From positions 25,730,001 through 25,794,000 of the forward strand of contig CM114271.1 in assembly GCA_050084515.1 (NCBI GenBank): 64,000 bases of DNA, in the 5' to 3' direction. Positions 345 to 49,147 of this stretch are shown in pieces. The notes beneath the pieces are model-generated. The model was given only the letters and a program-made list of their open reading frames with translations, was not told the origin of the DNA and did not search any database. This DNA comes from Blasia pusilla. Lineage: Eukaryota. Made by a program: the position numbers and the translations under genes. Numbering within the stretch: the first letter of the stretch is position 1; each line of letters opens with the position of its first letter.

Positions 345-1119
345 ATTGGAGATATTTTGGTTCTTCTTGTCTCGTTTTTTGGATGCCATGAGTTAGCATG
401 GGATCATGCGTGTTTGTGTGTGTGTTTGGTGACAGCGATGTATGTTGTGTAGCGATGTGTATGCGCACGACAACTGTCACGTCTTTTAGGATAGATCGGT
501 GGGATCTAATAGAGCGCCTTCATGAGTAGTGGAGGACACACCCAAAGATGGGGTCGAGGTGACTGCTTTGAGGCCCTTGGAAACCTGAGATAGCAGATTT
601 CCCCTTCGTTTCGGCTCATTTGGAGCCATATTGAGGAACTTACTATTTTAGGTAAGTACCATTTTGAGTATATGATCGACTTACTATTTTTGGTAAGTGG
701 CCCTTGACCTCCTACATCAGGTCAAGAGCCAAGGAGGTGACTTGGGAGAATAGGTTACCATGGAGAGAGCTTGGGAGAGGAGAGGGGTATACCTCAAGGA
801 GAGAGAGCTTGAGAGCTCATTCTCTCTTTGTTGAACCTCTTGGCATGAGGCGGCGGAGCTATGGTACCTTGCCTTGTGAGTGTAACCCAAGCCTCTCATT
901 AGGAGAGTGGGTTTGGTTTGACATGAGAGAGAGTGCACACCTTTGAGAGCTATGGTGTGAGATGGTGGAGAGAGAGATTGGATCTTACTTTATTGGAGAT
1001 ATTTTGGTTCTTCTTGTCTCGTTGTTTGGATGCCATGAGTTAGCATGGGATCATGCGTGTTTGTGTGTGTGTTCGGTGACAACGATGTATGTTGTGTAGC
1101 GATGTGTATGCGCACGACA
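345..1119 (+). repeat. Split terminal repeats of copy 1: B1(345-472)-AC-A2(475-991)-B2(992-1119)
   Basis: The 128-bp block attggagatattttgg...gcgcacgaca occurs twice. The intervening A block starts TGTCAC and is homologous to 57233-57741 (reverse complement). Confidence 0.92.
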
Positions 1120-3269
1120 GCTTGAATCAAAAGGAGTTAAGGGTTGAATTATATCAAGTTTTAAAGGATGTCATGCATCGACATGATGTGGATGGTCGAA
1201 GGGTTGGGAGACGCATTGTATTACCTTCTTCTTTTACTAGAGGGCCACATCATATGCATCAATTGTATCAAGATGAAATGGAAATTGTAAGACATTTGGG
1301 GAAGCCAAACTACTTTTTGACAATGACATGCAATCCTAAGTGGGAGGAGATTACACCAGCCTTATTACTTGGTCAATCAGCTGTGGATAGACTAGATCAG
1401 GTTATACGGGTTTTAAGAAGAAAAAGAAGGAGTTGTTACAACTTATCATTAACAAGAAAATATTGGATCGAGTTCTAGGATGCATCCATGTTGTGGAATT
1501 TCAAAAAAAAGATCTCCTGCACGTGCATGTTCTTATTATTTTAGGCCATGAGGATAAACCACGAACCACTTTTGATTATGATAGTATTATTTCAGCATAA
1601 ATCCCCAATCAATCTACCCATCCAAGGTTGTATTCTACTGTCGCTAATTGCATGATTCACGGGCCATGTGGAGTATTAAATCCAAGTGCACCATGTATGG
1701 ACAAGGAAACCAAAAAATGTACCAAAGGCTACCCTGAGCCTTTTGCGGCTAGTACCACAGAGATGGAAGATGCTTACCTGATCTATCACAGGTAAGGAAC
1801 TTTTCATCCTAGATTATTTTTATGACTATAAGGGATATGAGGCCAATGTGATGATTTCATGCTTTGTAATTTTATTTTTTTAGATTGGAGAATGGGAGGG
1901 CGATACTTAAGCGCAAACATTCATTGGATAATCGTTGGGTTGTGCCCTACAATCCTATGTTCTGCGCGTTCTTTGATTGTGACATTAATTTGGAGAATAC
2001 AAGTAGTGTTTATGCCGTCAAGTACTTATATAAATATGTATATAAGGGGTCTGATGTTGTATCATTTAAGTTGTCAAAGGATACATCCGACACAATTGAC
2101 AGTGTTGACGAGACGACGTCATATCTTGATGCAAGGTAAGATTGTGCTAATTGATTGTTGTGTTGCATGATATTGAATTCATCAACTTTACTTCATTCTC
2201 CTTACTTGAATATTTGGAATTATTATTTTTCCAGATATATTTCTTCTTCTGAGGCATGTTGGCGACTCTTCAAGTTTAGTCTACACGTTGAACTTCCAAG
2301 TATTGTACAATTAGTAGTTCATTTTCTAGAACAACAAGAAATCTACTTCAATTATGTTGATCCTCCTCAACAAATTTTGCAACAAAATAGAGAGACAACT
2401 TTGACAAAATGGTTTGCAACCAATCTACTTGATTCCAATTCCCGAAAATATCTATATGTAGATTTTCCTTCATATAATTGTTGGAATAACAAGACATGGA
2501 TTCTTAGGGTACAAAAAAGAAATGATTGTGGCCATCCTATTGGCCGCTTATACCTTACTCATCCAGGTGAATACGCTTGATTTTGTTTTTCACCATCTAA
2601 AGTGATGTATTTATATTGGGATGAATTGATTTTTTTCACTTCTTCGTAGGTGAAGGAGAACTTCATTGGTTGAGATTACTTCTCCGTCATGTTTGAGGAG
2701 CAGCGCCATATGAATGCTTGAGAATTGCCAATGGAATATTAGGTCAAACATTCAAGGAAGCTGTTATCCAAATGGGACTTCTCGAGGATGATAGGGAAGT
2801 GTTCTCTTGTTTTCAAGAAGCTTCTATGATCCGTACATGTTCTTCACTTCGCCGTCTATATGCAATCATTCTAGCGTACAACTTATCTGCTCAACCTACA
2901 ACCTTATGGACTCAATTCTTGGACCCATTGGTGGAAGATCTCTTATATGAACGACGTTAGGTAGGAATTCATTACCTTCACTCCTTACATCATTAGTTTT
3001 ATTCCTAATAGTATCTTCTTTTGAGCATTCAAGAAACTAGTCATGATTTGGGCTTTTTCTCGAACTGTTGTATTGCAGAAAATAGGAATTCCTAATCTTC
3101 CTATTGATGACGATATCATTAATAATGCCTTGTTGTAAGTTCATTATTATTTACAAGATCAAGGAAAGGGACTATCTGACATTCCTGACATGCCCCAAGT
3201 CAATTTCCAAAGCCTTCACTCACATTCATATTTGGAGGAGCAAGAACTATTATGTGATACGGAAGAATT
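1120..3269 (+). pseudogene. Helitron Rep (HUH/Y2) domain, intron-containing, frameshifted
   Basis: Motifs GRRIVLPSSFT, FLTMTCNPKW, VVEFQKKDLLHVH (HUH), KYLYKYVYKGSD (Y2), RYISSSEACWRLF and TFKEAVIQMGLLEDD. GT-AG introns e.g. 1792-1883 and 2136-2234. Confidence 0.92.
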
Positions 3270-3637
3270 TTTCATGACCATACGGATTATGTCGTAGAGT
3301 AAAGTGTGCTAGTAGAGGCCATACCTTATGTAGGACCGTAGTGGCTAGGTAGAGATGCGGTTTTATACATAGGGTTGGGGGTTACTCAGTTGGGGGTGCC
3401 TTTCCCAGTAGGGCCCGCTCTTAGGTTGGAAGATATAGTGTGGCGTGCACCCAAAGAACAATCAGTTCTTTGAGTTGAGCCTGTTGCGTTGGGAGTTAGC
3501 CTTGGTAGTGAGTAGAGCTCTTGGCTATAATTTTTCCCGCAAGCTTCGACCTAGATTCTCCCATCGCGGAGTGGGTTTGGCTCGATTGTATGTGATTCTA
3601 TACGTGTTTTATGATAGTAGGTCTTTCAAGGATTTCA
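3270..3637 (+). repeat. A1 terminal repeat of copy 2 (direct repeat of 11728-12080)
   Basis: Colinear high similarity to A2 with one indel of about 15 bp. Start TTTCATG here versus TGTCATG in A2. Confidence 0.93.
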
Positions 3638-3649
3638 CTCAAAGAACTG
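3434..3649 (+). promoter_or_regulatory. Putative TATA/Inr promoter and self-priming primer-binding site
   Basis: TATA 3434-3437 and Inr-like TCAGT with A at 3464. cagttctttgagt (3463-3475) is the exact reverse complement of actcaaagaactg (3637-3649) at the A1 boundary. Confidence 0.75.
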
Positions 3650-4803
3650 GAGTAGATCGATGGTAGCTTCGATTGTGGATCAGTAGGATCTCGTTAGGGT
3701 TGATTGTGTACTCAGCCATGGATGTTTGTGGCTTGTGGCCTATGTTGGAGGTAGGAATATGGTGCATGGTTGATTGGGAAAGAAGCGCCTTGCTGAGAGC
3801 TTTCCAACGTGCTTTAGATCGCCGGATTTCGTCAAGGGAGTTGGAAGTTATCAAGGATTGAAGATTCTGGTTAGCGTTCGACGGTTTTCTGATGTGGAGA
3901 GCTTGGAGTGCGGAAGCTCTGTTGAAGTTCATCCAAATCGGGTGAGAGGTTCCTGTTGCTACTTGTATTGTGATCTCATGTGAAGCTATCTGCTCAAGTG
4001 TGTGGAGCGTTGCAGATTTTTGCGTGCATGAAACTGGGCGGAAGCGCTGTCGGAGACTTCGAGGCAACTCATGGTAGCTCGGGGCGAGTGAGCGTGAGAG
4101 GCGGAGTAAGGAGCAAGGAGCAAGCAAGAAAGCTTGCTTGCCTGGGCGTGAGGCAATTTTTGCAGGATTTGTGATTTGAGTGTTGCATAACTAGTCATCC
4201 ATCTTTGGGCTATTCTGCCTGGAAGACGCTTAACTGCTGAGTTCTTAACTATGCCAGTGTACACACTGGTGTAGCTCATTTGGTGCTATTTGGAGATGTG
4301 TTAGGTGTTTATGCATCTCAAGTTTTTTGGTTGATGGAACTCTAGTGCATACTATGGTGTAGCCTCTCCATGCAGATGATATTTTCAGGTGCTGCGAGTC
4401 CGACTAGCACGTCATCGACTGCTGGCGGAGTAGCTATTGCGTTAGAATTGTGTGGTGGGTTCTATGGATTCAGGGGGCGCCACGTTTGGTGGATTGTGTT
4501 ACCTTGATTTCCATTTGTGATTGGAGGGTTGTCGTTGGACTTCCTGTGTTTGGATCCCCTTCATCGTTGCTTCTTGCTTGCGCGCCCATTGTTAGGGTTC
4601 ACGTTGATTTCCAGAGTAGTGTTACTCCTGTGTGCTACCGGTAGTGAGGCTGGAGTGATGACGAGTAGACCGTGGGAGGCTTCTTGTGGTGCTGACAGGT
4701 TAGGTTGCCTACACCCATAGCTAGTAGAGCTAGAATAGTACAGCGACATCGACGTCACTTGGTTACTTAGTGGTGGTGATTTGGTGGTGGTGCGGCATCG
4801 GCG

Positions 4804-6328
4804 TTGGTCATCACGGAGCTGTCTGGTGGTTTGTTTGGGGACCGTGGTGCGGACAGTGGTGGTTTCACACAAATTGGATTGAGGTATCGGCTACCTTTTC
4901 CACTTCCGACGGTTGATGAAGAGGAGGACGAGGGTGTTCCAAACACCGAGTCTTCTACGTTGTTATCGAGTGTTGCAGCTCCATTGATTTGGGACATGGA
5001 CGGGATATATGGGGCCATGAAGGGCCCACGACGATACTCGGGTGCAGTGGGCACCATTGAGTTGGAGGACTTCCTGCAAGAGTTTGATACGTGGTGTGAT
5101 ATGCAGATGTTGCAGAACGCCACGTTGTTTACACCCTTCTTGGCTTGGAAGGGGTTGTTTCAGCACTTGGAGGGACCACCCATGGACGATAACCATGAGT
5201 TTAGGAAGGACCATGTTGCTGAGATTGAGGCGTGGAGACAATATTGGTCTCCAAGCTATGTGTCTATCACCCATGGTGGTATTGGTAGTAGTGCTCCTAC
5301 TATGCCAGCCAGCCCGACGTTGAGTGGTACGAGTACGAGCCGGATTGGGGGTACCAGTGGGGGTACTAGTGGAGGTACTAGTGCCCCACCATCATTTAGC
5401 CCGGTTGCACAGTTCTTCAAGAGGTTGAAGAAGAACTATCAAGGAGTGAAGACAGAGAAGTTGAGAAGTCTTCAGGAATTTGAGCGAAAGACTTGTGAGA
5501 GTCTTTGTGTATGCCACGCTTGATTTCAGTTACTCAGGGTGTGACTGAGGCTTAGGCAGTCCAGTTTTGGTATGGGATCTTGGACAGAGAGTTGCGCCGT
5601 AGGGTACGTGATGCTACTCTTATGAGTGATGATTCACCCACATTGACCCATGTGTTTGCTCTATCTGAGAAGATTGAGCTTAACATGGTGAAGGAGAGAG
5701 TGGTGACATCCACATTCAGTAGGGATACAACTACTACTTCTCGTGTTCAGCAGCCCACCTCACAATCTCGTAGTAGTGGTGGTGGTAGTAGTAGTGGGAG
5801 TCGTGGGGGGTACACACGACGTTAGTCAGGTCCTAGAGGGACACTTTGCAGAGACCATTGCCTTCATTTGCTGCCCTGCAGCAAGGACATTCATGTTGGA
5901 CATGTGGAGGTCTTCATGTTAGGAAGTTGTGTCCCCAAGAGGATGGGAGACGGACTTTGGAGGATGGGCCTCAGTCGGCCCCAACTCAATGTGATCATTG
6001 CGGGAGACCAGGTCATCCTCGAGAGCGTTGGTTTGATCTTCATCCAGAGTTAAGATCAGGCCGCGGCCGTGGTGGAGTAGCTCCGAGAGGCCGAGGTGGT
6101 AGAGGTGGTAGGGGTGGTAGAGGTGGACTAGTGGTTGGAGAGCCTACAGTGGCTACCCCTACCACTACGACAGAGTCAGCTATGGCTTCCAGGATTGAGC
6201 AATTGGAGCAAAAGTTGGCTACTATGGCTGGTATCCAGCATATATCAGGTTCGGGAGCAGGGGCTTCCACCTCTTATGGAAGGGATGATCTCTCTTATAT
6301 GGCGAGTGCAGCACAGGTTGAGGCATGA
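4804..6328 (+). pseudogene. gag-like polyprotein with two Zn knuckles and RGG repeats
   Basis: Segments IELEDFLQEFDTWCD, CWTCGGLHVRKLC, CDHCGRPGH and RGRGGRGGRGG; interrupted by stops. Confidence 0.8.
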
Positions 6329-6439
6329 GCTGCAGTTACGAGAGGAGCCACTCGAGCGTCAGAGCCACGTGATGCTATTGTGGAGTTGGACCCATAGAGG
6401 GGTGAGGCTGGGAGGCAAGCTAGGCTTCCCCAGTCATTC

Positions 6440-7516
6440 TTGTTTTCTGAGGTGCTTAGGACTCCATCCATGGTTCCTACGCACCCTATTGAGCCGACAG
6501 TGGGGACTGAGGCATCTACATCGCGTGTAGTAGACACGGATGCAACATCCAGTGCAGTATTACGGATGGAAACTTCAGTGTTGGGATCCCCATTGTTTTC
6601 GACCACGGAACTGATGGCTTTAGGAGTTGACTTAGCTCCTGTATTTCAGCTAGCAGCCACGTTGTGTGAACGTGGGGGTATTATTGCTACACATGATGAG
6701 GTGGATGAGGGTGTTACGGTGGAGCGGCCCTCTATATCAGGTGTAGCATTGAGTACCAGTGCTACTTGGCAGGCAGCAGCGGTGAAGATGGATGCATTAC
6801 CAGCCCGGCCAGCCATTGATCGTGAGAGGCTTACACCTTGTGTATATATGTTGGACAACCGGAGTGGGATATTTCGATTGGTGAGTCCTACAGGACAAGT
6901 GTATAGACCAGATAGAGTATTGTTAGACTCTGGTGCCCAACCTTTGATGTTGGGAAAGGCGGCATGTATTGGTTTGGATATTCGGAGGTTAGAGCTTGAG
7001 CCTTGCCCATTCCAGATTCAAACATCACTTGGAGGAGCCAATAATAGGTCTCAATTCACGACACGGGAGAAGTTTTCTGTACAGTTGAGACCAGATCATG
7101 CGACTGATAGCTCCCGGTTGGGAGTACCTACAGTGGTCATATCAGCCGAGTCGTATGATGTACTAGTTGGAGGAGCAGTATTGTACCCGATGGGTTTTCA
7201 GATGGATTACTGGACTGAGACAGCGTCTTATACACCTGGTTGGCAGTGTGGGGATGGACGTATGAGCCAAGTTCCTGTGAGATTTATTTATGGGGCTCGA
7301 CCAGGAGGGTCTTCCCCAACAGTGTTAGCATTTGTGGCTAGTTTTAGTGGAGTAGTCACTTGGCCAGGAGACTTTTTGGAGGGTAATGTTTCTGCTATGG
7401 ATTCTCCTGTGCATGAGGAGGTCCCTAGTTTTGCAGTAGTGGCATCCTCATCGTTGGATGTGCCACTTTGGAGTTCAGGCGGTGCACTACAGCAGGAGGT
7501 TGATCGCCTAGTGTAG
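6440..7516 (+). pseudogene. Retropepsin aspartic protease region
   Basis: RVLLDSGAQPLML (D-S-G) and YDVLVGGAVL. Confidence 0.85.
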
Positions 7517-7603
7517 GAGGCTTGGTGTGAAGCTGTTATACCTCACAAGAAAAAGGAGGCCCCACGGCAGAGTCCTACTTCTGGTCTAGTTGGGTTATCC
7601 CCT

Positions 7604-8070
7604 TTGGATACTACACCCATTGTATGGCAGTATCCGCCGGAGGGCATTTGTGTGTTAGATCTCTTTGGTGGGATTAGCACTGGTTTGGTTGCAGTGTCGC
7701 AGGCCGGTATTCCTGTGCGGAGATACGTGTATGTGGAGCGAGATGAGACGGCCCAAAGAGTCTCATCCCGACATATTGGTCAGTTGATGCGGAGATATCC
7801 TAAGTTTTTGCCACCATCATCTATTCGTGGGTACCAGCGTGCTTTGCCGTCACACATTGTATTGTTGGGGGCGCAGGACCTTAAGAGGGTTGGTCCTGTG
7901 GATTTGGTGATTGCTGGATGGCAATGTGCGACAGTTGGTGGAGCCTAACGCTGATGAGAGAGAGCGTGCGATGGGATTTGCTACTGGTGTGACAGCCGTT
8001 GCTTCCATTTCTTAGGCTTCACGACGTCATGTGTTGGGTCAGGCCATAGACCTGAATTCTTTGACTTGGA
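7604..8070 (+). pseudogene. DNMT3-like cytosine-5 DNA methyltransferase domain (internally deleted) within pol
   Basis: Motif I VLDLFGGI, motif II YVERD, motif IV DLVIAGW.C. A deletion then joins to motif IX EPNADERERAMGFATGVT and motif X RRHVLGQAID. Confidence 0.85.
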
Positions 8071-8332
8071 TTTTGAGTCTTGGTATGGCCGAGCAGCGTC
8101 GACTTCGGACTATGTCTGTGGGTCTTCCACCCCTTGTAATGAGCTCGATGGTTATTGGGATGGTAGAGGCATCGGCTGGGGGTGAGGAGAGTAGTATTTT
8201 GCATCCTTGGAGTGAATGGAATGTAATGGCTGGGCATGTGGAGTTGGTTGCTCATGCTGGTGGAGGGTTATTTGCTCAGATGATGGTGTAGCTAAGGGTG
8301 TACCATCTTGTGAGGGGGTTGCGTAGCAGCCA

Positions 8333-9800
8333 ATGGCATCATCCTCTCCCTCTAGTGTGCCAGTGGAGGAGACTTGGGAGCCATTACTTGGGCCCAAGCT
8401 TACGGGAGGTGAGAAACGACGCTTGACACAGTTCCTACATTCTTATAGGAGTTGTTTTGCCTTTAGCATGAAGGATTTGGGTGCTCTGGTTGGACTCGGT
8501 ATACGGATTGAGTTGGCTAGTGATACACCAATCTTTCGTCGTCCCTATCGATATAGTGATATGGAGAGGGACCTGATTCAGGGTAGGACGTTAGACCTTT
8601 TGGAGGCTGGATTAGTGGAGTTGTCGCATGGAGAGTATGCATCAACCACTGTTATGCCTGCTAAAAAGGATATGCATGGAAACTACACGGATAGGCGGAT
8701 GTGTGAAGATTACCGTCCTATCAATTGGCAAACCAAGACCGATAGGTATGCCATGCCTACAACTGAGGAGATCTTTGATGTGGTGGGACAGGAAAAGATT
8801 TTCAATACTTTGGATCTTCGGGCACGATACCATCAATTGCCGATTCGGGAGAGTGACAAGGCCAAGACAGCATTTTGGGGTGTCAACTCTCATGGCAAGG
8901 ATTGTTTGTACCAGTGGAAATTCTTACCCTTTGGGTTGAAGAATGCACCTTCCGAGTTTCAGAGAGTGATGGACAGGATCCTAGCAAGGTTGGATTTTGT
9001 TCGGTGTTACATTGATGATATCTTGGTGTTCAGTAATATGGTCGAGGAGCATCAGATATATTTGCAGATGGTGTTTGAGCGGTTGAAAGCTCATGGTCTA
9101 CGTTTGCATCCGGGAAAGTGTAAGTTCTTCCATGAGGATGTTGAGTACTTGGGTCATGTGATCTATCCAGGTGGTTTGGGAGTTCAGCAAGCAAAGGTGG
9201 AGGCTATTGCACTTATTCCGCGTCCGGTAGATGTGAGTAGAGTTTGGGCATTCATGGGATTGGCGAACTACTATCGGAGGTATGTGAAGGGATTTAGTGC
9301 TATGGAAAAGCCTTTGAACCAATTGCTGAAATCAGATCAAGAGTGGCACTCGGGAGATGATCAGGAGAGAGCTTTTGTGGAGCTTAAGGCCCAGTTGGTG
9401 GCGGCGCCTATCTTGAGGAGACCTATCGAGGGCGCCCATTTACATTACACATCGATTGGAGTAGGTTGGGACTTGGAGCGGTGTTGACACAACATGATGA
9501 TGAGCACATGGAGTTTGTGGTGGCCTATGCAAGTCATTCGAATAATGCAGCGGAGTCGCGCTATATTTCATATGAGGGAGAGTGCTTGGCAGTAGTGTGG
9601 GTTGTGGCACACTTTAGGTGTTACTTGTTTGGCACACAGTTTACCCTTGTTACTGATCACCAGCCGCTCAAGTGGTTGATGGAGTCTGACAAGCTTATAG
9701 GGAAGCTTGCACGGTGGGTTCTTATCTTATAGGAGTATGACTTCTAGGTGGTACATAGACCTGGAGTTGCCAACCTTGATGTTGATGGGTTGAGTAGGAA
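8333..9800 (+). pseudogene. Ty3/Gypsy reverse transcriptase + RNase H
   Basis: RMCEDYRPIN, LDLRARYHQL, LPFGLKNAPSEFQRVM, YIDD, YLGHVI, YEGECLAVVW, TDHQPLKW. Confidence 0.95.
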
Positions 9801-10026
9801 CCCATGTACTAGCCAAGAGGATGCAACTGGGGCTAGATGGCATGGCAAGGTTGATGAGGAGGTGGTGCCAGGTTGGCATGCATCTGCCTTTTTATGTTGG
9901 TTAGGGGTGGACTCTAGTATGGAGGACCACATGACATCTTACTCTAGTCAGAGGGTAGATGGCCATCCTTCATATCCTTAGGTTAGAGATGGTGGTACGG
10001 ATCAGCGTGATATTCATGATGATGCG

Positions 10027-11446
10027 TTGGTGTTGGAGTTCCTACGGACTAGTAGGGTGCCAGGCATATTGAGTGCCAAGGAGCGAGACCGTGTTCTTCA
10101 ACGTGCTAAGAGGTATCGATTGGAGGGAACACATATTCTCCGTGTGTGGGAGGATGGTAGAGTACGAGTAGTGCCGTATTTGGCTCAGAGAGAGCGCATT
10201 GTGCGACATGCCCATGAGGAGTTGGGACATTTTGGGGTAAAGCGTACGTATAGCTTACTCCTTGGTCAGTATTGGTGGCGTGGCATGCAAACTCAGGTGC
10301 AGCAGTTGGTGTCACGTTGTATGGTTTGTGATTGGGTGAGGGCATCATTCAATGCCCCTACACCACAGTTACACCCCTTGCCTATTATGGGGTTGGGTTA
10401 CCGTTGGAGTGTGGACTTTGCGGGACCGTTACCGTTGATTGTACGACATCATCGATATGTGTTGGTGATGGTGGAGCACTTCTCCAAGTGGATTGAGTTG
10501 GTGGCATTACCTGACAAGGAAAGTGAGGGAATGGCGTACGCGTTTCTTGATAGAGTGCTTAGTCATTTTGGTGCACCAGCTGAAGTGTTGACCGACTAGG
10601 GTACAGAGTTTCAGGGTGAGTTTCAGGTCTTGTGTGACAAGGCGTTGATTGATCATCGGACCACATCTCGAGATCATCCAGAGGCGGATGGTTTGGCTGA
10701 GCGTGTGGTTCATACGGTGAAGAGGGCATTGCGCAAGCATGGCCTCTGAAGGGCATCTTGAGACAGGATATTCAGTTGCCATGGTTAGCCATGGGGTATA
10801 GGTTCAGTCGCCAAGCATCCTTGGCTTCCTTCTCACCTTATTTTTTGTTATACGGCCGAGATCCAGACTTGCCAGCATCAATTTGTCGGGAGTCTAGTGA
10901 GGTGGTGAACCTTGATGACCTAGAGATGTGGATGAGGGTGTGTTCTCAGCGGGCAGAGCTCTTTTGGAGAGTTATGCCAACAGCCTTTGAGAATCTTGCC
11001 ATTTCTCAACATAGAGATACGTTGCGGTATGCAACAATTCGAGGTGGAGGTTATCGACCATCGATTCGTAGGTTCCATGTAGGGGACTATGTCTATTTGC
11101 AGCAGATTGCACCGACAACGTTGGATGTGACGGCAGGCCGCACTATTTTACGAGTGCACGAGGTGTTAGCTTCTGGAGTTCTCATGTTGGAGGGTCGTGA
11201 TGGAGTTGTTTGGAAGGACCATGTGCGTAATTGTGCGCCATGTCATCTTCCAAATGTGGATATCTTATTGACCCAAGCTTAGCCATGATACGTGCTAGCT
11301 TGAGGTGCATGTTGTGTGGGTTTGCTAGTAACGCAGCCCGTATGTTGGTGTGTGATCGGTGTTCTAGGGGTTGGCACATGATGTGTTTGACTCCACGTAT
11401 GGATGTTGTTCCTACTGGAAGGTGGGTTTGTCCTCGATGTATTTAG
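10027..11446 (+). pseudogene. DDE integrase with C-terminal PHD finger
   Basis: HHCC (HEELGH...CMVC), WSVDFAGP, VLTD*GTEF, DGLAER, PYFLLYGRDP, then CMLC...CDRC...H..C...WVCPRC. Confidence 0.93.
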
Positions 11447-11619
11447 GAGAGGTAGATGACTTGATCTTTGTATGATATGGATTACAGATGTGCGACTAAC
11501 GATGGGGCAACCTAGCACCCGGCCTTCTGATTCGTGCACCCACGAAGGTGTATAGCATGTAGTAGATGTATAGGGCTACCTGGGAGTTAGAGGGACCTAA
11601 CCGCCAGTTAGGGGGGCAA

Positions 11620-12186
11620 GTTGTGGTACACTTATGTTTGTGGATGCTCTCGTCTATGTTATGTATGTATATGAGTATGGTATGTCAACGATGTATGTTG
11701 TATGACGATGTGGATTCGCAGGACAGCTGTCATGATCATATAGATTATGTCGTAGAGTATAGTGTGCTAGTAGAGGCCATACCTTATGTAGGACCGTAGT
11801 GGCTAGGTAGAGATCCGGTTTCATACATAGGGTTGGGGGTGACTTTCCCAGTAGAGCCCGCTCTTAGGTTGGAGGATATAGTGTGGAGTGCACCCAAAGA
11901 ACAGTCAGTTCTTTGAGTTGAGCATGTTGCGTTGGGAGTTAGCCTTGGTAGTGAGTAGAGCTCTTGGCTATGGTGTTTCTCGCATGCTTTGACCTAGATT
12001 CTCCCATCGTGGAGTGGGTTTGGCTTGATTGTATGTGATTGTATACGTGTTTTATGATAGTAGGTCTTTCACGGATTTCAGTTGTGGTACACTTATGTTT
12101 GTGGATGCTCTCGTCTATGTTATGTATATATGTGAGTATGGTATGTCAGCGATGTATGTTGTATGACGATGTGGATTCGCACGACA
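11620..12186 (+). repeat. Split terminal repeats of copy 2: B1(11620-11725)-GC-A2(11728-12080)-B2(12081-12186)
   Basis: The 106-bp block gttgtggtacac...gaca is duplicated around A2. The B1-A2 junction is the palindrome GACAGCTGTC. Confidence 0.93.
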
Positions 12187-13790
12187 AATTATTTGAGCAA
12201 GTACAATTGGGAGAAGCATGTCTGAATGAATAACAACGTGTTATTTGGGATGCTATACATGATGAGCTTGATCAAATATGCATAAATGTTCCACCATCTT
12301 CAAAAGTATTTTTCATCGATGGTCCGTGTGCAACAGGAAAGACATTTCTATATAATCTTCTCCTTGCAAGCGTAAGGAGTGCGTATAGCATTGGTTGTAG
12401 CATCATCTGGAATACTTGTTTTATTGTAAGATGGAGGACGTACTGCACATTCGCGTTTCAAGATCCCCATCAATCTTCATGAGAGCTCTACTTGCAAGTA
12501 AGTGTCATTAACCACTTTACATGCAATTGTATTGATACATAAAGTTTAATTATTCCAATTATTACAACTTCTAATTTATTTTCCTTTGTCATTTATAGTT
12601 TATGAGTCGATGGTGATGGAGCATGCTTAATCCGTGCGAGAATGCTCATTATATGGGACGAAGCACCTATGACTCATTGTCATGCATTCGAGGTTGTGAA
12701 CCGTACTTTACAAGATATTATGGGAGTTATTTCTGATGATCTACGGCAAATACCATTTGGCGGAAAATTTATGATATTTGGTGGTGACTTTCGTCAAGTG
12801 TTGCCAATTATTCGTCATAGGGATCGACCACAAATCATCCAAGCTACCATAAAGAGATCACCTATTTGGTCCAATGTAAAGGTCATGAAGTTGAAAACAA
12901 ACATGTGAGTTCAAAGGTTGGAAGGTCATTTACGTGTTGAACAACAAGGTTTTGCTGATTGGTTATTGGAGGTGGGTGAGGATTGTGTACCTTTGCATCC
13001 AAATTTGGGAGAAGATTTCATAAAATTACTATCTAAAATTGTTACTGATAGTAATAAGATATCTGATCTTATTGATTTGATCTATGGCAATTCTCCTAGC
13101 CAATTCCAAGACATTGGGTTCTTGAGAAATACAACTATTCTGACTACAAGAAATAGAGATGTTGATGACATAAATACAGATGTTATGTCTCGATTTCTTG
13201 GACATGTAATCTTTTAACCTGCATACATCTTCTACATGGATTTTTTCTCTTAGGTTTTAGGATTTAGGATTGTTTTACTGACTGTCTTTACTAATACATT
13301 ATTGTTTCTCACGAATTTAGTACACATTGTACAGGAGCATATTTACCTCAGGGTCAAGTCTATTCCAAATGAGGGGATGAGTCATATCTATCCAACGGAA
13401 TTTTTGAACACATGCTTGCCTTCTGGACTACCTCCACATCGTTTAAATTTAAAGATTGGTGCACCAATCATGCTCTTACGAAATATGAATGGATCACAAG
13501 GACAAGCAAACGGGACGAGATTGGTGATTCGTGGATTTATGCAACATCATATAGATGCCAAATTATTACCGGGAAGAATATTGGCGATTGAGTTTTTATT
13601 CCACGGATTCCATCGGATTCTAGTCTGCCATTTGATTTACGCAAGTTTCAATTTCCTATTCGCCTAGCTTTTGTTATAATTATTAATAAGTCTCAAGGTC
13701 AAGCTTTGCAAAAGGTTGGCATTTACTTGCCTACTCATGTATTTTCTCATGATCAATTGTATGTAGCAGTATCCAAAATAGGGAAGAGAA
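12187..13790 (+). pseudogene. Helitron PIF1-like helicase domain
   Basis: [77 protein letters not shown]. Confidence 0.93.
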
Positions 13791-14376: not shown

Positions 14377-15845
14377 TTGTCATTTGGAGAAATTTCCCAA
14401 GGTAACGTCCTCTATTCAACCATCCTTCCCCTCCTTTCCCAAGTCCTTCCTTGTTTGTCGTATTTGCTTCTCATTTTGGTTCGATTCACGTTTGTATTTG
14501 TTACCCCTCTCGTAGATACATCTTTCTTCTCATCTATTTTATCTCGATTGGCCCATGATCTTTCTACACTCTTAGCAACTCTAGGTATTCATGAGTTCAT
14601 TTTTGGGAGGGGGTTGGGACTAGAAGTCCTAGGTGATATCGGTAGGTGAGAGTTTATGTTAGAGGGAGCATTACCGTGGACGGTAAGAGAGTTGTTTGCC
14701 ATGACCGCTTGTTTGAATGGGGATGATAGGATTGTTATTGGCAGGGGATTGTCGCACGATTTTATTGCAGGGGGGCATGTCCTCTTCTTGGTGAGTTGCA
14801 TCCATGCCTCGACCCGCATTGACTCCCCGTGTGGGGACCCGTGGGTCGTCTAGTCGAGATACTAAATGCCCATGTTGTCCCGAATTCTTCACTCGTTCAG
14901 GAATTCGGAACCACTATGTCTGACTGGAATATCCCCATGGAGGTTAGGGCCCGTATTCGCTCTTGCTCCGGAAAGGGGGCAGACTCATGGGTAGGGGCGC
15001 GCCCCCTTCTCCCGGCTTTCCGTATCGCACCACTTACCTATACCACAGCGATGCGGTTGCGCTTGGGCCTCCCCCAACCATCGGTGGTTGGTTGGACACA
15101 CTGCGAGTGTCGCCGGAGCCTGGATCCACTTGGTATGCATTTGGCACGCTTTCCAATTGGGGGTGAGAAGATAGCCACTCACGATGTAGTGCAAGATATC
15201 ATGTTCACTATTGCTCGGGACAGTGGCTTCCATGTGCAGAGAGAGAGGCACTACTCCATGCAGGATTCCCTTATTCGAGTTGATCTTTACATGACACGAG
15301 AGGCTGAGGTGGTGGTGGCGGACGTGGTAGTTACAGATCCTACGCGGGAGGCAGTGCGAGCCCAAGTGGTGGCCCAAGGGCGAATGCTACAAGGAGCGGC
15401 GGCGGCGGCGGTGAAGAAGATACATATCTACATTCGACTTCACGAAGGACACATCTTCATCCCCCTGGCCATAGAGATGTATGGGGCTATGGGGGAGAGG
15501 TTTGACTCCTTCCTTACGAACTACGCCCATTATCTCCAATCGAGAAATGGGTTGTCCTTAGCTACTACGGTTCTCTATTGTAGGCAGCGGGTCTCCATAG
15601 CGTTGCAGTGCGCCCAGGCTAATGGGCTTTTGTGGCGGGCTCAGGCTATTGGAGACTCCAGCGCTAGAGGCCCACTTAATAATAGTCATAACTCTCTTGT
15701 TGTTGCTGATATTTTCTCTGTTGTTAGTGAATTTCGTCGCCAAAAGGAATACCCCCTTCTTTCTTTTCTGGTCTTGTTGTGGCCTTCAAGTTTTGACTCT
15801 TTGAATCCACCTCTTTTGTACTTCGGATGGGTTTTCCATCACACG
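14377..15845 (+). mobile_element. 5'-truncated CRE-clade-like non-LTR retrotransposon (Zn knuckle + restriction-like endonuclease)
   Basis: ORF 14829-15932 has MRLRLGLP, CEC...H, THD, RVD, ADV, KK, FIPLAIEMYGAMG and QRVSIALQ. The 3' UTR is shared with 16700-16822 and 59105-59260. The 5' boundary is approximate. Confidence 0.8.
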
Positions 15846-18059: not shown

Positions 18060-18600
18060 AGAAAGGTAAATTTTAGAATTCTCGGCCGGTCATTTAGACA
18101 CAAATATGAAAAAGAGTCTACGTATTCCGTCGGTTTTTAGCCTGAATGGATGATTTAAAAATTTCCCGGCTAACTCAACACGTGACCCTGTTCCCCCCCT
18201 CCATTGGACGACGCCGGTGTCCGTGCGGCACGATCACATGAAAAACGGTAGGGTAATGACTCTATGAGAAAGCAGGACTCCCATGAAGTCTGAACGTAAC
18301 AATCATATGCCGACACCAGCCGGCCATATGTGCGATGCAATGTCCGGGGAGAACCGGGGTTACGTGTTGACCTAGCCGGTAGTTAATTTGCAAAGTGAAT
18401 TTCCGATTCACTTTGCAAATTAACGGCCAAAAACCGGCAGAATAGAGGGGTCCTCTTTTGTAGTTGTATCTCTTTAGCCGGACGGATTCAAGAAAATATC
18501 CAAAATTACCGTTCTCGTCCAAAAAAACCGGAAATGAACGGGTTCTCGCCAAAAAACTACCCGGACCGTGGTGCAATGTCCAGGTTGGTAGAGCATCTGA
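18060..18600. repeat. Diverged dispersed repeat: inverted pair (about 18060-18199 and 18347-18600)
   Basis: ggggagaaccggggttacgtgttgacctagccgg at about 18347; reverse-complement-like ccggctaactcaacacgtgaccctgttcccc at about 18166-18199. Confidence 0.6.
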
Positions 18601-24071: not shown

Positions 24072-25270
24072 TTTGGTAGACGAACGTCTGCGCAGAGCAT
24101 GAATGAATTCGACCAGATTAGTTCTTTCAAGGTAACAGAGAAATACACAAGATGGTGCACAAAGAGACGCGCGCTACACACCATCGATAGACTATCGCGA
24201 CGCTAACAGTGAGACACGTGAAAATGGCTTACATTCGATCTAAAAACTATTTATTAGATCGGCGATACAGCGAACCGACTGTTCTTGCACGAGATCTGAG
24301 CTAGGAAGTGACGCCGTCGAGGAAGGGGAAACGATCCGCCGACTGGATGTAAGCAACAAACCAATGCCGACGAACCCAGGGTAGGACCGAGATTCAAATA
24401 GGATGTAGTTTCTGCCAGCCCTAGGCTGCGCGCGCGGAGGCAGAGCGGAGAGTGGAGCAAAATCTACCTAGTCATCCAGGTTCGCTAACGCAAATACTAT
24501 CATAAAAATCGACACTACCACCGAACGACGCTCGTGTCAACTCGAGATCTACCCGAAATCAATCGCACCGCCCCCTCGAGGCAAGATTGATCGGTGGCAA
24601 ATACCAACGACGACGTACGCGTCGCAGCGAGCACCAAATCAAACGGCAGAAATGACATCTTCCGCATTAAGACCACAACAAGAGCCCACCACAATGCACG
24701 GACGCCAACCATACCTAAAACCTTGAGAAGACAACCGATCTGCAAGTCGCTCGCTGCAGCGATCGAGCGAGCGAGAGAGGAGAGGAGAAACGATAGGATG
24801 TGCCAGAGTCGGAGAAACTCGTGATAAAAGGGCCAACCCGGGAGGATCGCCGGATGGCCGATGAACATGACAGTCTGCCCACCCGAGTACTGTACTATCG
24901 CTACCGTAGCTTCTGGGAGTGCCAGATAGGGCCAGTTAATAAAAGGTTCTCATGGAAACCCTATTAAACTAGTGGACAGGCCTGTCGTGGCTCCCTACGG
25001 CCGTCCCCGAAGCGCTGAATGGCTGCGATCTCTCCTCCATCCTGGGATCTACGTCTTCCTGCTGCGCAGTAAGAATCCTCACCGCACTACCGTACGGTGC
25101 CCCGTCTGTGACGAGTTGGTTCTCAGTACTCGCCCCACATGGAAGTCCGACTTTTAGCGGCTCCTTTAGCCGGCCTCCACTCTCCAGTGCCATCACGAGG
25201 GGAGGAAAAGCACTCATGCCCTCATAGAGACTTGCTACAATGATTCGTCAGCTATTTCGAGCAATGTGCG

Positions 25271-25510
25271 GGGAGAAGCGGGGTTACGTGTTGAGCTGGC
25301 CGGAAGAATCTGAGAATTTCCGATTCAGGTCGTCACTTACCGGCCAAAAACCGAAGGTTTAGGGAGGGTGTCCTTTGTATTCGTACCTGTATAGCCGACT
25401 GGAATGAAGAAAACTTCGAAAATTGCCGCTCGGGTTTGTAGAGATCGGAAATCTACCGGTTGTAACGAAAAAACTCCCCGGACCCTGATTTCGAGTCTGC
25501 AGTGCTCCGT
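25271..25510 (+). repeat. Third copy of the 18347-18600 dispersed repeat, upstream of METE
   Basis: gggagaagcggggttacgtgttgagctggccgg...gaatttccgattca...acggccaaaaaccg. Confidence 0.7.
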
Positions 25511-36432: not shown

Positions 36433-39400
36433 TGTAACTCTCTAGCTCACGGAACCACTCTAGAGTTGCTCAAAGGTAGAATGCCCTCAAGGCCTCTCCT
36501 CTTCCTTTATATACTTAGAGATAGGTACAATGAAGACAAATTAGCTCTACTTATCCTTATGCCACATGTCCTACTCTTATAGTAGGAGAGGATCTCCTTT
36601 GGAGTCTAATGTCCCAACCTCATCCTTATCTTCCTTTTCACCAACCAATGGCCCCACTCTCATCTTTATCTCTTATATCTTGTCTTTTCTCTTTTTGGTT
36701 GATTCTTTCCAGATTATGCGCTTCATGTCATAGATTCTAACTAAACTATGACTAACAAAGGATGGTTACAAACCTCCCCCCCCATTTAAGACACAACGTC
36801 CTCGTTATGAGAACTTTCAAACTCTTGCACTATTAATGGTGCGTTTGCCAAGTTGGCCGAGGATTCCCATGTGGCCTCAAATAGTGGATATCCTTTCCAT
36901 TGGACCAGATATTCAACTCGTTGGTGATGAGCTCCTCGAGTGTATTTCTTCAAGAAACGATCCACTTTAAAATCTTCATGATCTTCGACTATTTGAGGTA
37001 GTGGTGGAGTGACAATATTATCCTTAAATCTCTCAGGGCGTGGAATAAACTGTCGAAGAAGAGAGACATGAAACACAAGATGGATTTTCATATGCATCGG
37101 TAGGTCTAGCTTATACGCCACGACACTCACTTTTTGTAGGATAGTGAAAGGCCCAATATAGCGAGAATTAAGCTTACGAACTCCTACTAATGATAAATTG
37201 GTTGTTGCTAACCAAACCTTCTCCCCTTCAAAAAACTTGACATCTTGACGATGAGCATCTGCATGTTGTTTTTGTCGAATTCGGGCAATAGCCAACTTCT
37301 CCTTAGCAAGTTGAATCCCTTTCTGAATTTGGTCCACAAACTCATTAATTGCAGCTACCTTTGTAGTTTCCCTCATACTTTTTCCTATTCGAGTGAGACT
37401 AGAAGGAATTGAGGGATGCTCGCCATGCATTAAAAAGAACGGTGTGGTCTTAGTGGAAGAGTTCATGGAGTTATTGTATGAGAACTCTATTAAGGGTAAT
37501 AATGAGTCATATCCTTGTTGATCCTCCAGTGTTAAGGCGCGTAGCATATCCTTAATGGTATGGTTGGCCCTTTAAGTTTGTCCATCAATTTGAGGGTGAT
37601 AAGCCGTAGACATGACTAGTTTAGTTTGGAGAAATCCGAATAAAGCCTTCCAAAATAAACTTGTGAAATGGATTCCCCTATCAGTGACAAGCACTTTAGG
37701 AAGACCATGATGGACAAAGAATGTCTCAATGTAAATCCTATCCAACTCTGATGTAGTGACAATCTTCTTGGTCGGACGAAGGTGTATCATCTTGCTTAGT
37801 CTATCCACAAAGACCACAATAGAGTCATATCCCATGATTGTACATGGTAGCTCACAAACAAGATCCATAGTGACTTGTTCCCAACATTTTTGAGGTTTTG
37901 TGATCGGCTACAACAGTCCTGTTGGTTTTGTGTTACTAGCCTTGATTTGTTGACAAATCCTATAACCCCTTACATATACGTCAACATCTTCTCTCACTTT
38001 GGGCCAATACTATGCCCTTTGTAATCCCTTTAAGGTTTTTTCAGCTCCCATATGACCCGCAATGATTGTGTCGTGAGCTTCAGATAATACTTCAGTGCGT
38101 AATTGTGGATCTTGTGGGATCCATACTTTACCTTTATGGAAAATCAATCCTTGAGCCTTGTATACTCTATTGGCATGAATAGCAATTGCAATTTCTTCAT
38201 CCTCCTTTGTGGTTTTGGATAACTTTTTCCACCAACTAGAGTGAATCTTCACTTCAAATATATTATTCATCTATGATATACGAGTCAAGGCGTCTGCCAA
38301 CTGCTTCTTTCCTTCAATATAGACAATTTTCATCGCCATTATGTCCATCGAATTTGACGTTTGGAGAGGTCCTTTTGGGCCTCTAAGTAGACCAAGGGCT
38401 TGTAATCAGTCTCCACCACAAACTCCTTATCGCCCAAGTAATGTTTCCAATATTTGGTTGCCAAAACAATAGCAAGTTCTTCTTGCTCAGTTGTATGGTA
38501 GTTTTGCTCAGCTGGCAATAGTTTACGAGAAAAGAAGGCAATAGGATGCCATCCATCCTCCCATTCTTATTGTAGTACTCTTCCAATGCTAGTAACTAAA
38601 GCATATGTGGCCAATTTGATGGGTCGATTAGGATCATACCACTTCAAAATAGGGGCTTTGATCAAGGCATCCTTTAATGATTGAAAATAAATCTCTTGTG
38701 ATGTGCACCAATTCCAATTTTGTCCTTTCCCTAGTAAAACTCTTAAGGATTGTGCAATTTGAGCAAAACCTTTGACAAATCTTTGATAGAATCCTATTAA
38801 CCCTATAAAATTGAAGATTGAGTTTGATCTTTAAATGTACTCCATTTTTTTATTGCTTCTACCTTCTCACTCATCACTTGAATATCTTCTGCGCTTACTC
38901 GATGCCCTAGATAATCAACTTCTGTCTTACCGAACTCACATTTTGAAGCTTTAGCATACAACTCATTATCTCTTAGGATTTGAAAGACTTCTCGTAGATG
39001 ATTTATATGCTCCTCTATCATTTTACTATAGACTAAGATGTCATCTAAGAATACAATGACAGACTTGTCTAAATATGGACGAAAGATATCATTCATTAGG
39101 CCCATAAAGGTTGCAGGTGCATTAGTAAGACCAAATGGCATGACTAAGTATTAAAATTATCCATACCTCGAACAAAACACACCACCATGTAAGGCTCTTT
39201 ACCGCTTAGCTCCAAGAGAATTAGAAGAATGCAAAGCCCAAGTGCAGGAGATGTTGCAGAAAGGATTCATCCAACTAAGCGTCTCGCCATATGGAGCCCC
39301 TGTCCTTTTTGTGAAAAAGAAGGATGGAAGCATGCGACTGTGTATCGACTATCGAGCACTAAATCAACAAACAATAAAAAACAAGTATCCATTATCAAGA

Positions 39401-42210: not shown

Positions 42211-44560
42211 AGTGACATCCAAAGTCGTGGGTGTCCTCTGCTCTAAGTAGTCATAGTCTCTCTGATAAAACCTCTGGATAGTAGGTCGATAACCACCTCC
42301 TCGAATAGTTGCATATCTCAACGTATCCCGATGTTGCGTAATCGCCAAGTTCTCAAATGCCATGGGCATCACTCTTCTAAAAAACTCATCCCTCTAAGAA
42401 CATGCTCGCATCCATACTTCAGGATTATCAAGGTTCAACACCTCACCAACATCTCAAAAAATGGCCGTAGATAAATCTGGCTCTCGGCCATAAAGTAGCA
42501 AGTACGGTGAGAAAGACGCTAAGGATGTATGCTTGCTGAATCTGTATCCCATCACCAACCATGGAAACAGGAGGTCCCAATCTCCTAGGTGACCTCTCTT
42601 CAAGCCATACTTGCGCAATCCTCTCTTCATCGTCTACACAACCCTTTGCGCTAGTCCATCCACCTAAGGATGATCTCGCAAAGTGGTGTGGTGGTCGATC
42701 AACGCCTGATCCAACAAGGCGTGAAACTCCCCACAAAACTCCGTACCCTGGTCTGTCAACACCTCAATTGGTGCGTAATGACTAAACACTCGATTTAGGA
42801 AGGCATGCGCTACTCCCTAAACTTTTGTAGGCAATGCAACCAACTCTATCCACTTTGAGAAGTGCTCGACCATCACAAACACTTAAAGACTGTGGCGCTC
42901 CGTCAAAGATAAAAGTCCTGCAAAATCTAAACTCCATCTATAACCCAAATCCATGATCAAAAGTGGATGCAATCGTGGAGTCATAGGATTGAACGATGCC
43001 CGGACCCGATCACAAACCATGCACACGGAAACAAATTATTGAACGTAAGTCTGCATGCCTCGCCACCAATACTATATTTGGAGCAAGCTTTATGTTTGCT
43101 TCACTCCGAAATGATCCAACTCCTTATGGGCATGACGCACCAAACGTCCTCTTTGTGAATAATGAGGCATTACACGTAGTCTACCATCCTCCCAAACTCG
43201 CAACACATGTGTCCCCTCCTACCCAAACTGTCCGGCTCGCTGTAGGATCTGATCCTGCTTTCTAGCACCCATTGTGCTCGCGACATTGCCAGTACGCAAG
43301 TACACCAAGATTACTCCATCCTCTTGAATATCTCGGCCATCTGTCATCTCCTCACTGGCCTCTGGATCTAAGAACTCTCCATCAGACCTTGCCATCAAAG
43401 TCTCCGCAATCTAGCTCCCCATAGCCATGAAGCCCAAATAGATTGACGTATGCCATCGTAGCACCAACTCCTCATCACTCTCACCATGCCACCGAGCTCC
43501 AGTTGCATCTCGCTGACTCGGGCATGGGTTACAACTCAAACCATCTCCATCTTGGTTGAGCGTCCCAAGTCTATGCACCACCAGGAAATCATACTCCTAC
43601 GACAAGAGAGTCCACCTTGCAAGCTTTCCTGTAAGCTTTTTGGACTCCATCAACCACTTAAGTGCCTGATGATCACTAATAATGGTAAAGGGATTGCCAA
43701 ATAGATAACACGTGAAATGTGCGACAAGCCACACTGCAGCCAAGCACTCACCCTCATACGAGCTATACTTTGCCTCTGCAGCGTTGTTCGAGCGACTAGC
43801 ATAAGCCACCACAAACTCTCTATCCTCATTGTCATGTCGGGTGAGCACATTTCCCAGCCCAAACATGCTCCAATCGATATGTCCCTTGATCGGTCTCCTG
43901 AATATGGGCGCGGACATCAATATGTCTTTGAGCAGTTGAAATGCTCTTTCCCGCTCATCCTCCCAGTGCCACTCCTAATCCACCTTGGTCAACAAGATCA
44001 GCGGCTTTGCAATCAAACTGAAACCCTTGACATACCGTCGATACAAGTTTGCCAATCCCATGAATGCACAAACTCCACTGACATATGTAGGGCGTGGAAT
44101 GCGCCAAGTAGCCTCTATCTTCGTCTGTTGCATAACAAGGCCACCTGGGTATATGATATGATCCAGGTATTCAATCTAATCGTAGAAGAACTTGCATTTG
44201 TCTGGATGTAGCATCAAAGATCTCCTCAAGGATGGGCATGGCATACTTATCAAACTTCATATGCCGATTGATAGGTCGATAATCTCCACACATCCGCCTA
44301 TCCGTCCAGTTGCCATGCACATCCTTCTTGGTGGGCATGACACTCGCAAATGCATACTCTCCATGCGACATCTCTACTAATTCTGCTCCAACCAAGTCCT
44401 AGCTCCTACTCTTAATCAGAGCCCTCTCCATGTCAATGTAATGCAAATCCATGGACCCTTCAATGTACTCAAATCATGCATGCTAAATGTGAAACAACTC
44501 CTATAACTCCTAGGGAACTTATGTATTTGGCGTGACTCTCCTCTTGTCAACTTAGGGCCC
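42211..44560 (-). pseudogene. Copy 3 RT (core deleted)-RNase H-integrase
   Basis: DRRMCGDYRPIN, EEIFDA joined directly to the HPxKCKFF-like region, YEGECLAAVW, AFENLAITQHRDTLRYATIRGGGY. Confidence 0.88.
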
Positions 44561-46396: not shown

Positions 46397-46572
<176 letters not shown>

Positions 46573-48751: not shown

Positions 48752-48752
<1 letters not shown>

Positions 48753-48817
<65 letters not shown>

Positions 48818-49019
48818 GCAAGTTTTGGCAAAGCTTATAAGAAGCTACTCATGAAGCTCAATCACTGAGTGAACGTAGATCCATAGTTTACACACACTCA
48901 TAAATGGGAGGGCATATGCAAATGGTTTCTTTGTAGGAAGAAATAGGAATACATCTCTGATCCCTAGTAAAATGAAGCTAGTTGTTGAGGTTACCAATGA
49001 GGGTGAGATAGTGTATGGA

Positions 49020-49051
<32 letters not shown>

Positions 49052-49059
49052 TGAGTGAG

Positions 49060-49147
<88 letters not shown>
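48753..49147. repeat. (CT)n 48753-48816 and (GT)n(GA)n 49021-49147 microsatellites
   Basis: Direct observation. Confidence 0.97.

Follow-up and report, generated by a model that had tools for sequence, protein, structure and literature searches.

A candidate self-primer and its binding site in gypsy-type retrotransposons with split repeats from Blasia pusilla

Background

How does a retrotransposon start reverse transcription when the sequence behind its 5' repeat shows no transfer RNA (tRNA) site? The question is raised by a 64,000-nucleotide (nt) stretch of Blasia pusilla DNA (contig CM114271.1, positions 25,730,001 to 25,794,000 of the forward strand), referred to here in its full length as the window, which is eukaryotic and plant-like in character and harbors three copies of one retrotransposon type with unusual repeats. 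Copy 2 (3270-12186, plus strand) is inserted inside a Helitron-like gene and has the order A1, internal part, B1, a 2-base spacer, A2 and B2, where A and B are the two repeats; the tips of the element are TG at the start of A and CA at the end of B. Copy 3 lies on the minus strand, with A1 at 57741-57234, B1-A2-B2 at 35942-35178 and other elements nested within it, and copy 1 has lost its 5' part at the window start, leaving B1-A2-B2 at 345-1119. Copies 1 and 3 form one family (family 1), their A repeats being 81-86% identical, and copy 2 represents a second family, whose pol is about 70% identical to that of family 1.

We propose that the 12-13 bases directly after A1 are likely to be the minus-strand primer-binding site (PBS) of a streptophyte Ty3/gypsy-type lineage that does not use a tRNA. 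Under this proposal the element's own RNA would supply the primer: a short stretch r, located near the RNA 5' end and about 130-175 nt upstream in A, would fold back on the candidate PBS, here called P; the RNA would then be cut after r and the 3' end of r extended, the first base copied being the last base of A. The plus strand would start at a G-run polypurine tract abutting B, and the integrated form A..B-xx-A-B, in which xx stands for the two-base spacer, would be a permuted form of B-xx-A. Copy 2 has an RNase H domain according to Pfam, and we suggest that this domain may free the primer.

A site complementary to the element's own repeat follows A1

The following features of copies 2 and 3 are involved in the pairing.

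3270-3636, plus strand: repeat A1 of copy 2, 90% identical to 11730-12079, starting with TT where A2 has TG
3434-3437, plus strand: TATA-like motif of copy 2, aligned with canonical TATA boxes of related families
3450-3459, plus strand: P', a near-copy of the candidate PBS of copy 2, just upstream of r
3463-3475, plus strand: r, candidate self-primer of copy 2, with a 12-nt core at 3464-3475
3637-3649, plus strand: P, candidate PBS of copy 2, beginning at the first base past A1
57234-57741, minus strand: A1 of copy 3, a family 1 element; it contains a TATA-like motif (57433-57430) and r (57402-57390)
57221-57233, minus strand: P, candidate PBS of copy 3, directly behind A1 (offset 0) and matching at 13/13 positions

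In copy 2, 3637-3649 is the exact reverse complement of 3463-3475 (13/13), comprising a 12/12 Watson-Crick core (3637-3648) and a 13th pair, and it stands right after A1. A different sequence occupies the same place in copy 3, where 57233-57221 on the minus strand is the exact reverse complement of 57402-57390 inside A1 (13/13), the offset again being 0. Both pairings had been claimed in a preliminary description of the window, and both proved exact; the TATA at 788-791 and the motif from 819 that it had noted in copy 1 are present as well. The start of r is 174 nt from the end of A in copy 2 and 169 nt in copy 3, and the distance from TATA to r, earlier put at about 30 nt, is 29 nt in copy 2 (3434 to 3463) and 31 nt in copy 3 (57433 to 57402) when counted from the first T.

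By analytic expectation, a 13-mer would find its complement anywhere in A about 5e-6 to 7e-6 times per element. When 57,360 background 20-mers, taken from window sequence outside the elements, were compared with the three A repeats, complements of at least 13 nt at offset 0 occurred in 1, 0 and 0 cases, respectively, and the chance of an exact 13-nt complement at offset 0 is at most about 2e-5 per element. The preliminary description had also stated that no tRNA PBS follows A1, which holds at the motif level only: there is no TGG at the boundary, none being found within the first 11 bases after A in copy 2 or within about 60 bases in copy 3. ARAGORN found 0 tRNA genes in the window.

Four pairs of ordinary long terminal repeats (LTRs) from the same data served as controls. 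None of the four has a complement of at least 6 nt at offsets 0-5, and two of them, belonging to an element nested in the window and to locus L074, are followed after one base by a site beginning with TGG. The nested element lies inside copy 3 (36433-42211, minus strand), has LTRs of 329-339 nt that are 83% alike and a G-run tract, and carries its TGG-type primer site at 41881-41870, one base past the 5' LTR; we take this site to be the usual initiator-methionine tRNA site of plant elements.

The pairing is kept by covariation in related loci

Metagenome contigs were scanned with an alignment of reverse transcriptase (RT), yielding 80 loci, all of which were searched with the A and B repeats; a self-comparison covered 52 of the 80, the 28 left out being mostly short. 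We considered an A followed by P-type sequence as a 5' copy, and obtained 19 such copies with all-different flanks. The window contributes 2 of them; another 5 come from group 2b, whose RT shares 66-80% identity with that of the window and whose A repeat is akin to that of copy 2 in the 3' half alone, and the other 12 come from group 3, where the RT identity to the window is about 40%. At loci with 43-52% RT identity the sequence was too short for a 5' end to be included. Locus L027 (RT 49% identical) was tried as an additional 5' case and dropped, as the repeats upstream of its RT gave no A-type repeat.

In all 19 of these 5' copies, and in every group, P begins at the first base after A. Group 3 displays a third r/P sequence type, which is unrelated to both types of the window and is perfect over 13 nt at offset 0 in L039; no TGG was seen by eye near the A boundary in this group. 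Among the 16 5' copies with an ungapped r, r forms 8-12 of 12 pairs with its own P (median 11), compared with a mean of 6.5/12 and a maximum of 9 with the P of another group (n=147), and with a mean of 5.35/12 and a maximum of 7 with the 13-mer that follows A in 3' copies, i.e., the start of B (n=20). These counts include Watson-Crick pairs only, because r is T-rich and a count allowing G-U pairs had a background of 8/12.

Changes on both sides of the helix are found within the copy 2 type. Its outermost pair, r1/P13, is C-G in copy 2 of the window and T-A in L004 and L011, a compensatory change, and the pairs r9/P5 and r12/P2 are altered on both sides in L007. The r of L007 forms 12/12 pairs with its own P and only 10/12 with that of the window, and both A copies of this locus carry the changes in r. 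A check of covariation across families thus yielded three unrelated r/P types and three base pairs changed two-sidedly within one type, in support of the earlier statement that the sequences differ but position and pairing are alike. The spacing from the TATA motif is kept as well: across the three r/P types, and likewise in subgroup 2b, 29-31 nt separate its first T from the start of r. Groups 2b and 3 have a canonical form of this motif (31 nt ahead of r in L039), and the complementarity of the r-P core starts at an A preceded by a pyrimidine. All told, r and P are in our judgement probably a real pair of self-primer and PBS.

The repeat boundaries coincide with the putative priming sites

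The remaining parts of the three copies are arranged as follows.

3266-3269, plus strand: left 4-bp target-site duplication of copy 2, the same four bases being found at 12187-12190
3650-11609, plus strand: internal region of copy 2, interrupted by stops and frameshifts
11610-11618, plus strand: G-run polypurine tract of copy 2, directly before B1 and inside a block conserved between the families (11583-11618)
11619-11725, plus strand: repeat B1 of copy 2, 96% identical to 12080-12186, with a CA end
11726-11727, plus strand: spacer xx of copy 2, two bases between the CA of B1 and the TG of A2
11728-12079, plus strand: repeat A2 of copy 2, with its own copy of r at 11907-11919
12080-12186, plus strand: repeat B2 of copy 2, joined to A2 without any base between, its CA being the element end
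35942-35815, about 35814-35307 and 35306-35178, minus strand: B1, A2 and B2 of copy 3, the copy of r in A2 having one mismatch
345-472, 473-474, 475-991 and 992-1119, plus strand: B1, xx, A2 and B2 at the 3' end of copy 1 (family 1), with TATA at 788-791 and a copy of r at 819-831

The Helitron-like reading frame is broken by copy 2 and picks up again past 12186. The layout with a two-base spacer is also found in copy 1 (473-474) and at 8 further loci. Past the RT, B-A-B is present at 21 of the 80 metagenome loci searched, in addition to the three window copies, although three pairs among these 21 (L018/L019, L025/L026 and L031/L032) look like single places assembled twice. At 2 loci B-A ends at the contig end, at 1 locus (L034) B-A is followed by something else, and at 11 loci, including two duplicate pairs, a single B is followed by at least 600 nt of other sequence. 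The B-xx-A junction is near-palindromic in all groups. Among the loci with the split arrangement are L003, L019, L026, L031, L039 and L041.

Integrated copies have the order A..B-xx-A-B, with TG/CA tips and 4-bp target duplications, and they encode a DDE integrase. The same A end that borders P in 5' copies is joined directly to the first base of B in 3' copies, and the G-run tract abuts B1 in 7 of the 8 elements listed, the exception being L041, for which the entered B1 boundary was off. From their sequence context, the end of A and the start of B appear to behave as the end of the unique 5' region (U5) and the start of the unique 3' region (U3), respectively. With P at the end of A and the G-run before B, the reverse-transcribed repeat would have the order B-xx-A, and A2|B2 would represent a junction of U5 with U3. 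The exact abutment of P on the repeat boundary would then be explained as well, because the start of the minus strand sets the end of the reverse-transcribed repeat.

RNA start, predicted folds and the case against self-priming

Three stranded RNA-seq runs (X22, X23 and X24) were aligned to the window at 90% likeness; they carry the same species label and come from one study, and thus are not mutually independent. The family of copy 2 is transcribed in sense, with the first mate on the minus strand. No fixed difference of the reads from the window was found within r or P among the best-supported differences listed, and at 11583-11615, within the conserved block before B1, copy 2 collects clipped reads of family 1.

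A number of observations weigh against priming by r at P. First, the only pile-up of fragment starts common to all three runs lies at 3430 and marks an RNA 5' end there, 33-34 nt ahead of r; in X22, X23 and X24, respectively, 27/74, 26/121 and 25/78 molecules of depth start at this position. A start at 3463/3464 is not among the 12 of 15 starts listed, the rule for listing being a fifth of the depth, below which a minor start at 3464 would slip. Second, when the RNA of copy 2 is begun at r, its predicted fold is no better than those of shuffled sequences (z -0.71), and when it is begun at 3430, r is predicted to pair with the nearby P' in a local 8-bp hairpin and not with P. Third, the pairing is not kept everywhere: r is deleted in 2 of the 19 5' copies (L003 and L010), L041 keeps only 8/12 r-P pairs, and the 13th pair is lost in several group 3 copies. 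Moreover, in group 3 the conservation of P is no better than that of the adjacent leader (0.84 vs 0.845), and that of r only slightly better than that of the rest of A (0.905 vs 0.87). Finally, self-priming at P accounts for the end of A, but not for the B2 that follows A2; priming at P and at the G-run would give a linear complementary DNA (cDNA) with B-xx-A at both ends, and not A..B-xx-A-B.

These points differ in weight. Since the group 3 copies are old and decayed, their weak conservation at r and P carries little weight, and we read it, from the aligned copies, as no strong evidence either way. The RNA start bears more directly on what had been proposed earlier, namely, that the first 11-12 nt of the transcript of copy 2 serve as the primer: the partner of the primer site does lie in the element's own repeat, but the pile-up at 3430 does not support r as the first 11-12 nt of that transcript, and it is unlikely that r forms the first bases of the bulk RNA in this family. 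At 3431, 3461 and 3529-3532 the reads placed on A1 agree better with A2, and we infer that they sit on A1 through mates in the leader, and hence are fragments of 5' ends. The leader depth in 3628-3941 (28, 14 and 17) is about what the molecules starting at 3430 would give alone. A loose upstream part of the RNA before 3430 is unlikely, because a loose end of 23 reads was listed in X24 and none was listed at 3430. The depth falls from 46-85 at 3431 to 23-30 at 3529, a drop that presumably reflects poly(A) sites of 3' copies between these two positions.

As for the folds, pairing of the 5' end with P is predicted for an RNA begun at r in L039 (15 bp, z -3.86), in copy 3 (z -2.50) and, with the z of -0.71 given above, in copy 2. 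The decoy P' is kept in group 2b, where it is identical by eye to positions 2-11 of P (10/10); in family 1 a purine-rich stretch could act alike, although its low complexity makes this a weak case, and group 3 has none. We read the abundant RNA of copy 2's family as a form with 34 extra 5' bases that include a decoy predicted to mask r. If so, self-priming could proceed in two ways. The primer may be internal to the RNA started at 3430, that is, a 46-nt 5' fragment of which the last 12-13 bases would lie on P. Alternatively, the abundant RNA may be a masked, non-priming form, and a minor TATA-directed RNA would be the template; this second option has a precedent, since the choice of start site controls self-priming competence in Tf2.

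The same data invite another explanation, in which the helix of r and P would be a long-range RNA structure conserved for a different job (packaging, dimerisation, translation control or strand transfer) and the minus strand has some other primer. Covariation demonstrates pairing and not its function, and this explanation would sit comfortably with an abundant RNA that starts 34 nt before r, with the hairpin predicted to hold r locally, and with a group 3 P that is conserved no better than its surroundings. However, such a helix need not start at the first base past the repeat, and yet it does in 19/19 5' copies of three types; in addition, there is no other conserved candidate primer site after A, nor a TGG near the boundary in copy 3 and, by eye, in group 3. 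We thus regard a purely structural role as unlikely, though it is the alternative that survives best.

Possibly permuted repeats and the remaining explanations

The B2 that self-priming leaves over might be explained if the repeats are permuted after reverse transcription. In this doubtful but possible scheme, RT would build a B-xx-A LTR, the DDE integrase would use the internal CA-xx-TG instead of the linear cDNA ends, and the choice of start site would switch the self-primer. The integrase would cut CA-xx-TG after the U5 end of the cDNA has been joined to the U3 start, so that integration would take place from a junction-bearing intermediate, circular or end-joined, and always in one of two permutations. 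In an RNA started upstream r would be masked, and in a TATA-directed RNA it would lie exposed. For the alternative permutation, A-B-xx-A..B, the counts were 0/19 5' ends and 0/24 A|B copies. A symmetric two-LTR circle cut at either of its two equal CA-xx-TG junctions was rejected for this reason, and some asymmetry is therefore needed in a model of circle cutting. If the scheme is true, the permuted repeat ties LTR elements mechanistically to the DIRS/Ngaro elements with split direct repeats.

Copies consisting of A..B only, without A2-B2, occur in L010 (4769-13408), L049 (2245-11434) and L036 (4297-13212); their 4-bp flanks match in L010 and L049 and differ at one position in L036. Recombination between B1 and B2 probably produced these copies, and we did not accept them as proof of a one-LTR circle, since such recombination yields the same product.

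The A..B copies with their 4-bp target duplications also bear on a further explanation, according to which minus-strand priming takes place at the B-xx-A junction, a near-palindrome at which two copies of the RNA would pair and be nicked, and the r-P helix merely joins RNA ends. The CA end of B would thereby fall at the right terminus. The junction is indeed near-palindromic in all groups, the true termini are TG at the start of A and CA at the end of B, and B2, which priming at P alone leaves unexplained, would be accounted for. On the other hand, the idea is an inference only, the A..B forms are more simply products of B1-B2 recombination, and the coincidence of the A and B boundaries with P and the G-run tract would go unexplained; we hold it to be improbable, more so than a structural role of the helix. 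That P binds a host tRNA, a tRNA fragment or another small RNA and matches A by coincidence is highly improbable even though half-tRNA priming is known in plant copia elements (Neumann et al. 2019), given three unrelated P sequences that each match their own repeat, compensatory changes within one r/P type, a chance of about 5e-6 per element and the lack of TGG at the boundary.

Coding capacity and relatives

The internal region of copy 2 contains gag-like open reading frames (ORFs) with a zinc knuckle, followed by RT, RNase H, an HHCC-DDE integrase and a PHD finger, and has Pfam matches to RVT_1 (1.3e-30), RT_RNaseH (1.2e-32), Integrase_H2C2 (7.5e-16) and rve (5.9e-8). The protease (PR) motif was recognized by eye only, in the ORF at 6398-7516. 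The C-terminal domain of the integrase is a PHD finger (PF00628, E 4.6e-11), and no chromodomain was found at the integrase end. At 7517-8015, motifs resembling those of C5 methylases were seen by eye in two frames; the stretch has no Pfam hit, and its motifs suggest a remnant of a C5 cytosine methylase domain. Two relatives, P0003 and P0015, match PF00145 in part, and others do so by precomputed Pfam annotation. The 8 scanned ORF translations of copy 2 gave no match to a recombinase family.

Among the matches listed, the closest RT relatives of copy 2 are from liverworts (77-78% identical), Sphagnum, Closterium, Klebsormidium and Chara, and many of the RT relatives contain PF00145 and PF00628. 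No named Tf1/sushi or Tcn1 sequence is among the best 120 RT matches listed. By their domain content, elements of the copy 2 type are Ty3/gypsy-type, with the order PR, RT, RNase H, DDE integrase and PHD finger, plus a C5-methylase domain or its remnant.

RNA reads skip 9970-10975 of copy 2 in 16-41 reads per run, two of the runs having nine other letters where the ends join, and 5073-11056 in 5-7 reads per run. Neither joint has a counterpart in the DNA contigs among the joints listed. These skips may represent expressed deletion derivatives of copy 2's family, or splicing.

Other features of the window

A Helitron-like gene with introns occupies 1120-3269 and the sequence from 12191 onward, split by copy 2; by eye, its translation is Rep/helicase-like before the insert and has a P-loop helicase motif after it. 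Long CT/GA dinucleotide runs in both orientations are found around the nested insertions in copy 3 (46378-46611, 48719-49184 and 57931-58489). Two further diverged repeat pairs, 65-72% identical (18337-18570 / 25261-25487 and 15456-15840 / 59127-59466), probably belong to other elements.

Comparison with known systems

A bare signature of self-priming is no surprise, since this is a known way of starting reverse transcription. As far as the portions of the published accounts considered here go, self-priming has been demonstrated in Tf1, in Tf2 the choice of transcription start decides whether an RNA can prime itself, and it has been predicted for 12% of the surveyed plant LTR elements, namely in the Tcn1 clade of mosses and club-mosses and in TAR of Ty1/copia (Neumann et al. 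2019). The novelty claimed in the preliminary description was accordingly overstated. What is new is the placement of a candidate self-primed PBS in a gypsy lineage whose repeats are split in a DIRS-like way and which has a DNA methylase and a PHD finger, the way in which the PBS and the G-run before B would fix the U5 end and the U3 start, and a concrete case where the abundant transcript may be unable to prime. With the A|B joint read as a U5-U3 joint, the origin of split direct repeats becomes testable. In practice, these elements will be mis-annotated by software that relies on finding a tRNA PBS and plain LTRs.

As in Tf1 and Tf2, the candidate PBS of the window elements lies just past the 5' repeat, is complementary to the element's own R region, and is found without a tRNA site (in the window elements, at the motif level). 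The start-site dependence of Tf2 also parallels the masked RNA of copy 2's family. In the Tf1 type, in contrast, the mRNA begins with the complementary stretch, whereas the RNA of copy 2's family starts 33-34 nt before r. The window elements further differ from Tf1 and Tf2 in their 12-13 bp duplex, in an integrase that ends in a PHD finger, and in split repeats of the form A..B-A-B in place of plain LTRs. To judge from sequence, the site may work like the self-primer of Tf1/Tf2, and the C-terminal trait of the Tf1/sushi chromoviruses is absent, a PHD finger being found where they have a chromodomain.

The PBS type 'self' of the plant elements surveyed by Neumann et al. 2019 was likewise predicted from sequence alone. 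The Tcn1 elements are chromoviruses with ordinary LTRs, unlike the split-repeat elements of the window. No sign of the PHD/methylase lineage was found among the self-primed plant elements in the part of that study compared here, its per-element supplementary lists lying outside the comparison. Nor did we find a paper describing self-priming for this lineage, although the supplementary PBS lists of Neumann et al. 2019 might include it.

The closest published description is that of KnitGypsy-Dnmt3 from Klebsormidium nitens, whose domains follow the Gypsy order, whose Pol includes a C5 methylase of the Dnmt3 type and whose repeats, per the figure legend, are DIRS-like (de Mendoza et al. 2018); by that legend, the split-repeat layout with gypsy domains is already in print. 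It shares with the window elements the order PR, RT, RNase H and DDE integrase and the repeat arrangement A - coding - B A B, and the two may be kin. Copy 2 differs in that its methylase region is a remnant without a Pfam hit. In the parts of de Mendoza et al. 2018 considered, nothing is stated on the priming, polypurine tract or repeat boundaries of KnitGypsy-Dnmt3, and our literature search for a split-repeat architecture with an integrase, or for self-priming in liverworts, returned nothing beyond its legend.

Finally, the repeat layout A1 - internal - B1 A2 B2 is also that of elements of the DIRS order (Ngaro, PAT-like and SymbioDIRS). Those elements encode a tyrosine recombinase, whereas the window elements encode a DDE integrase with an HHCC finger and are flanked by 4-bp target duplications.

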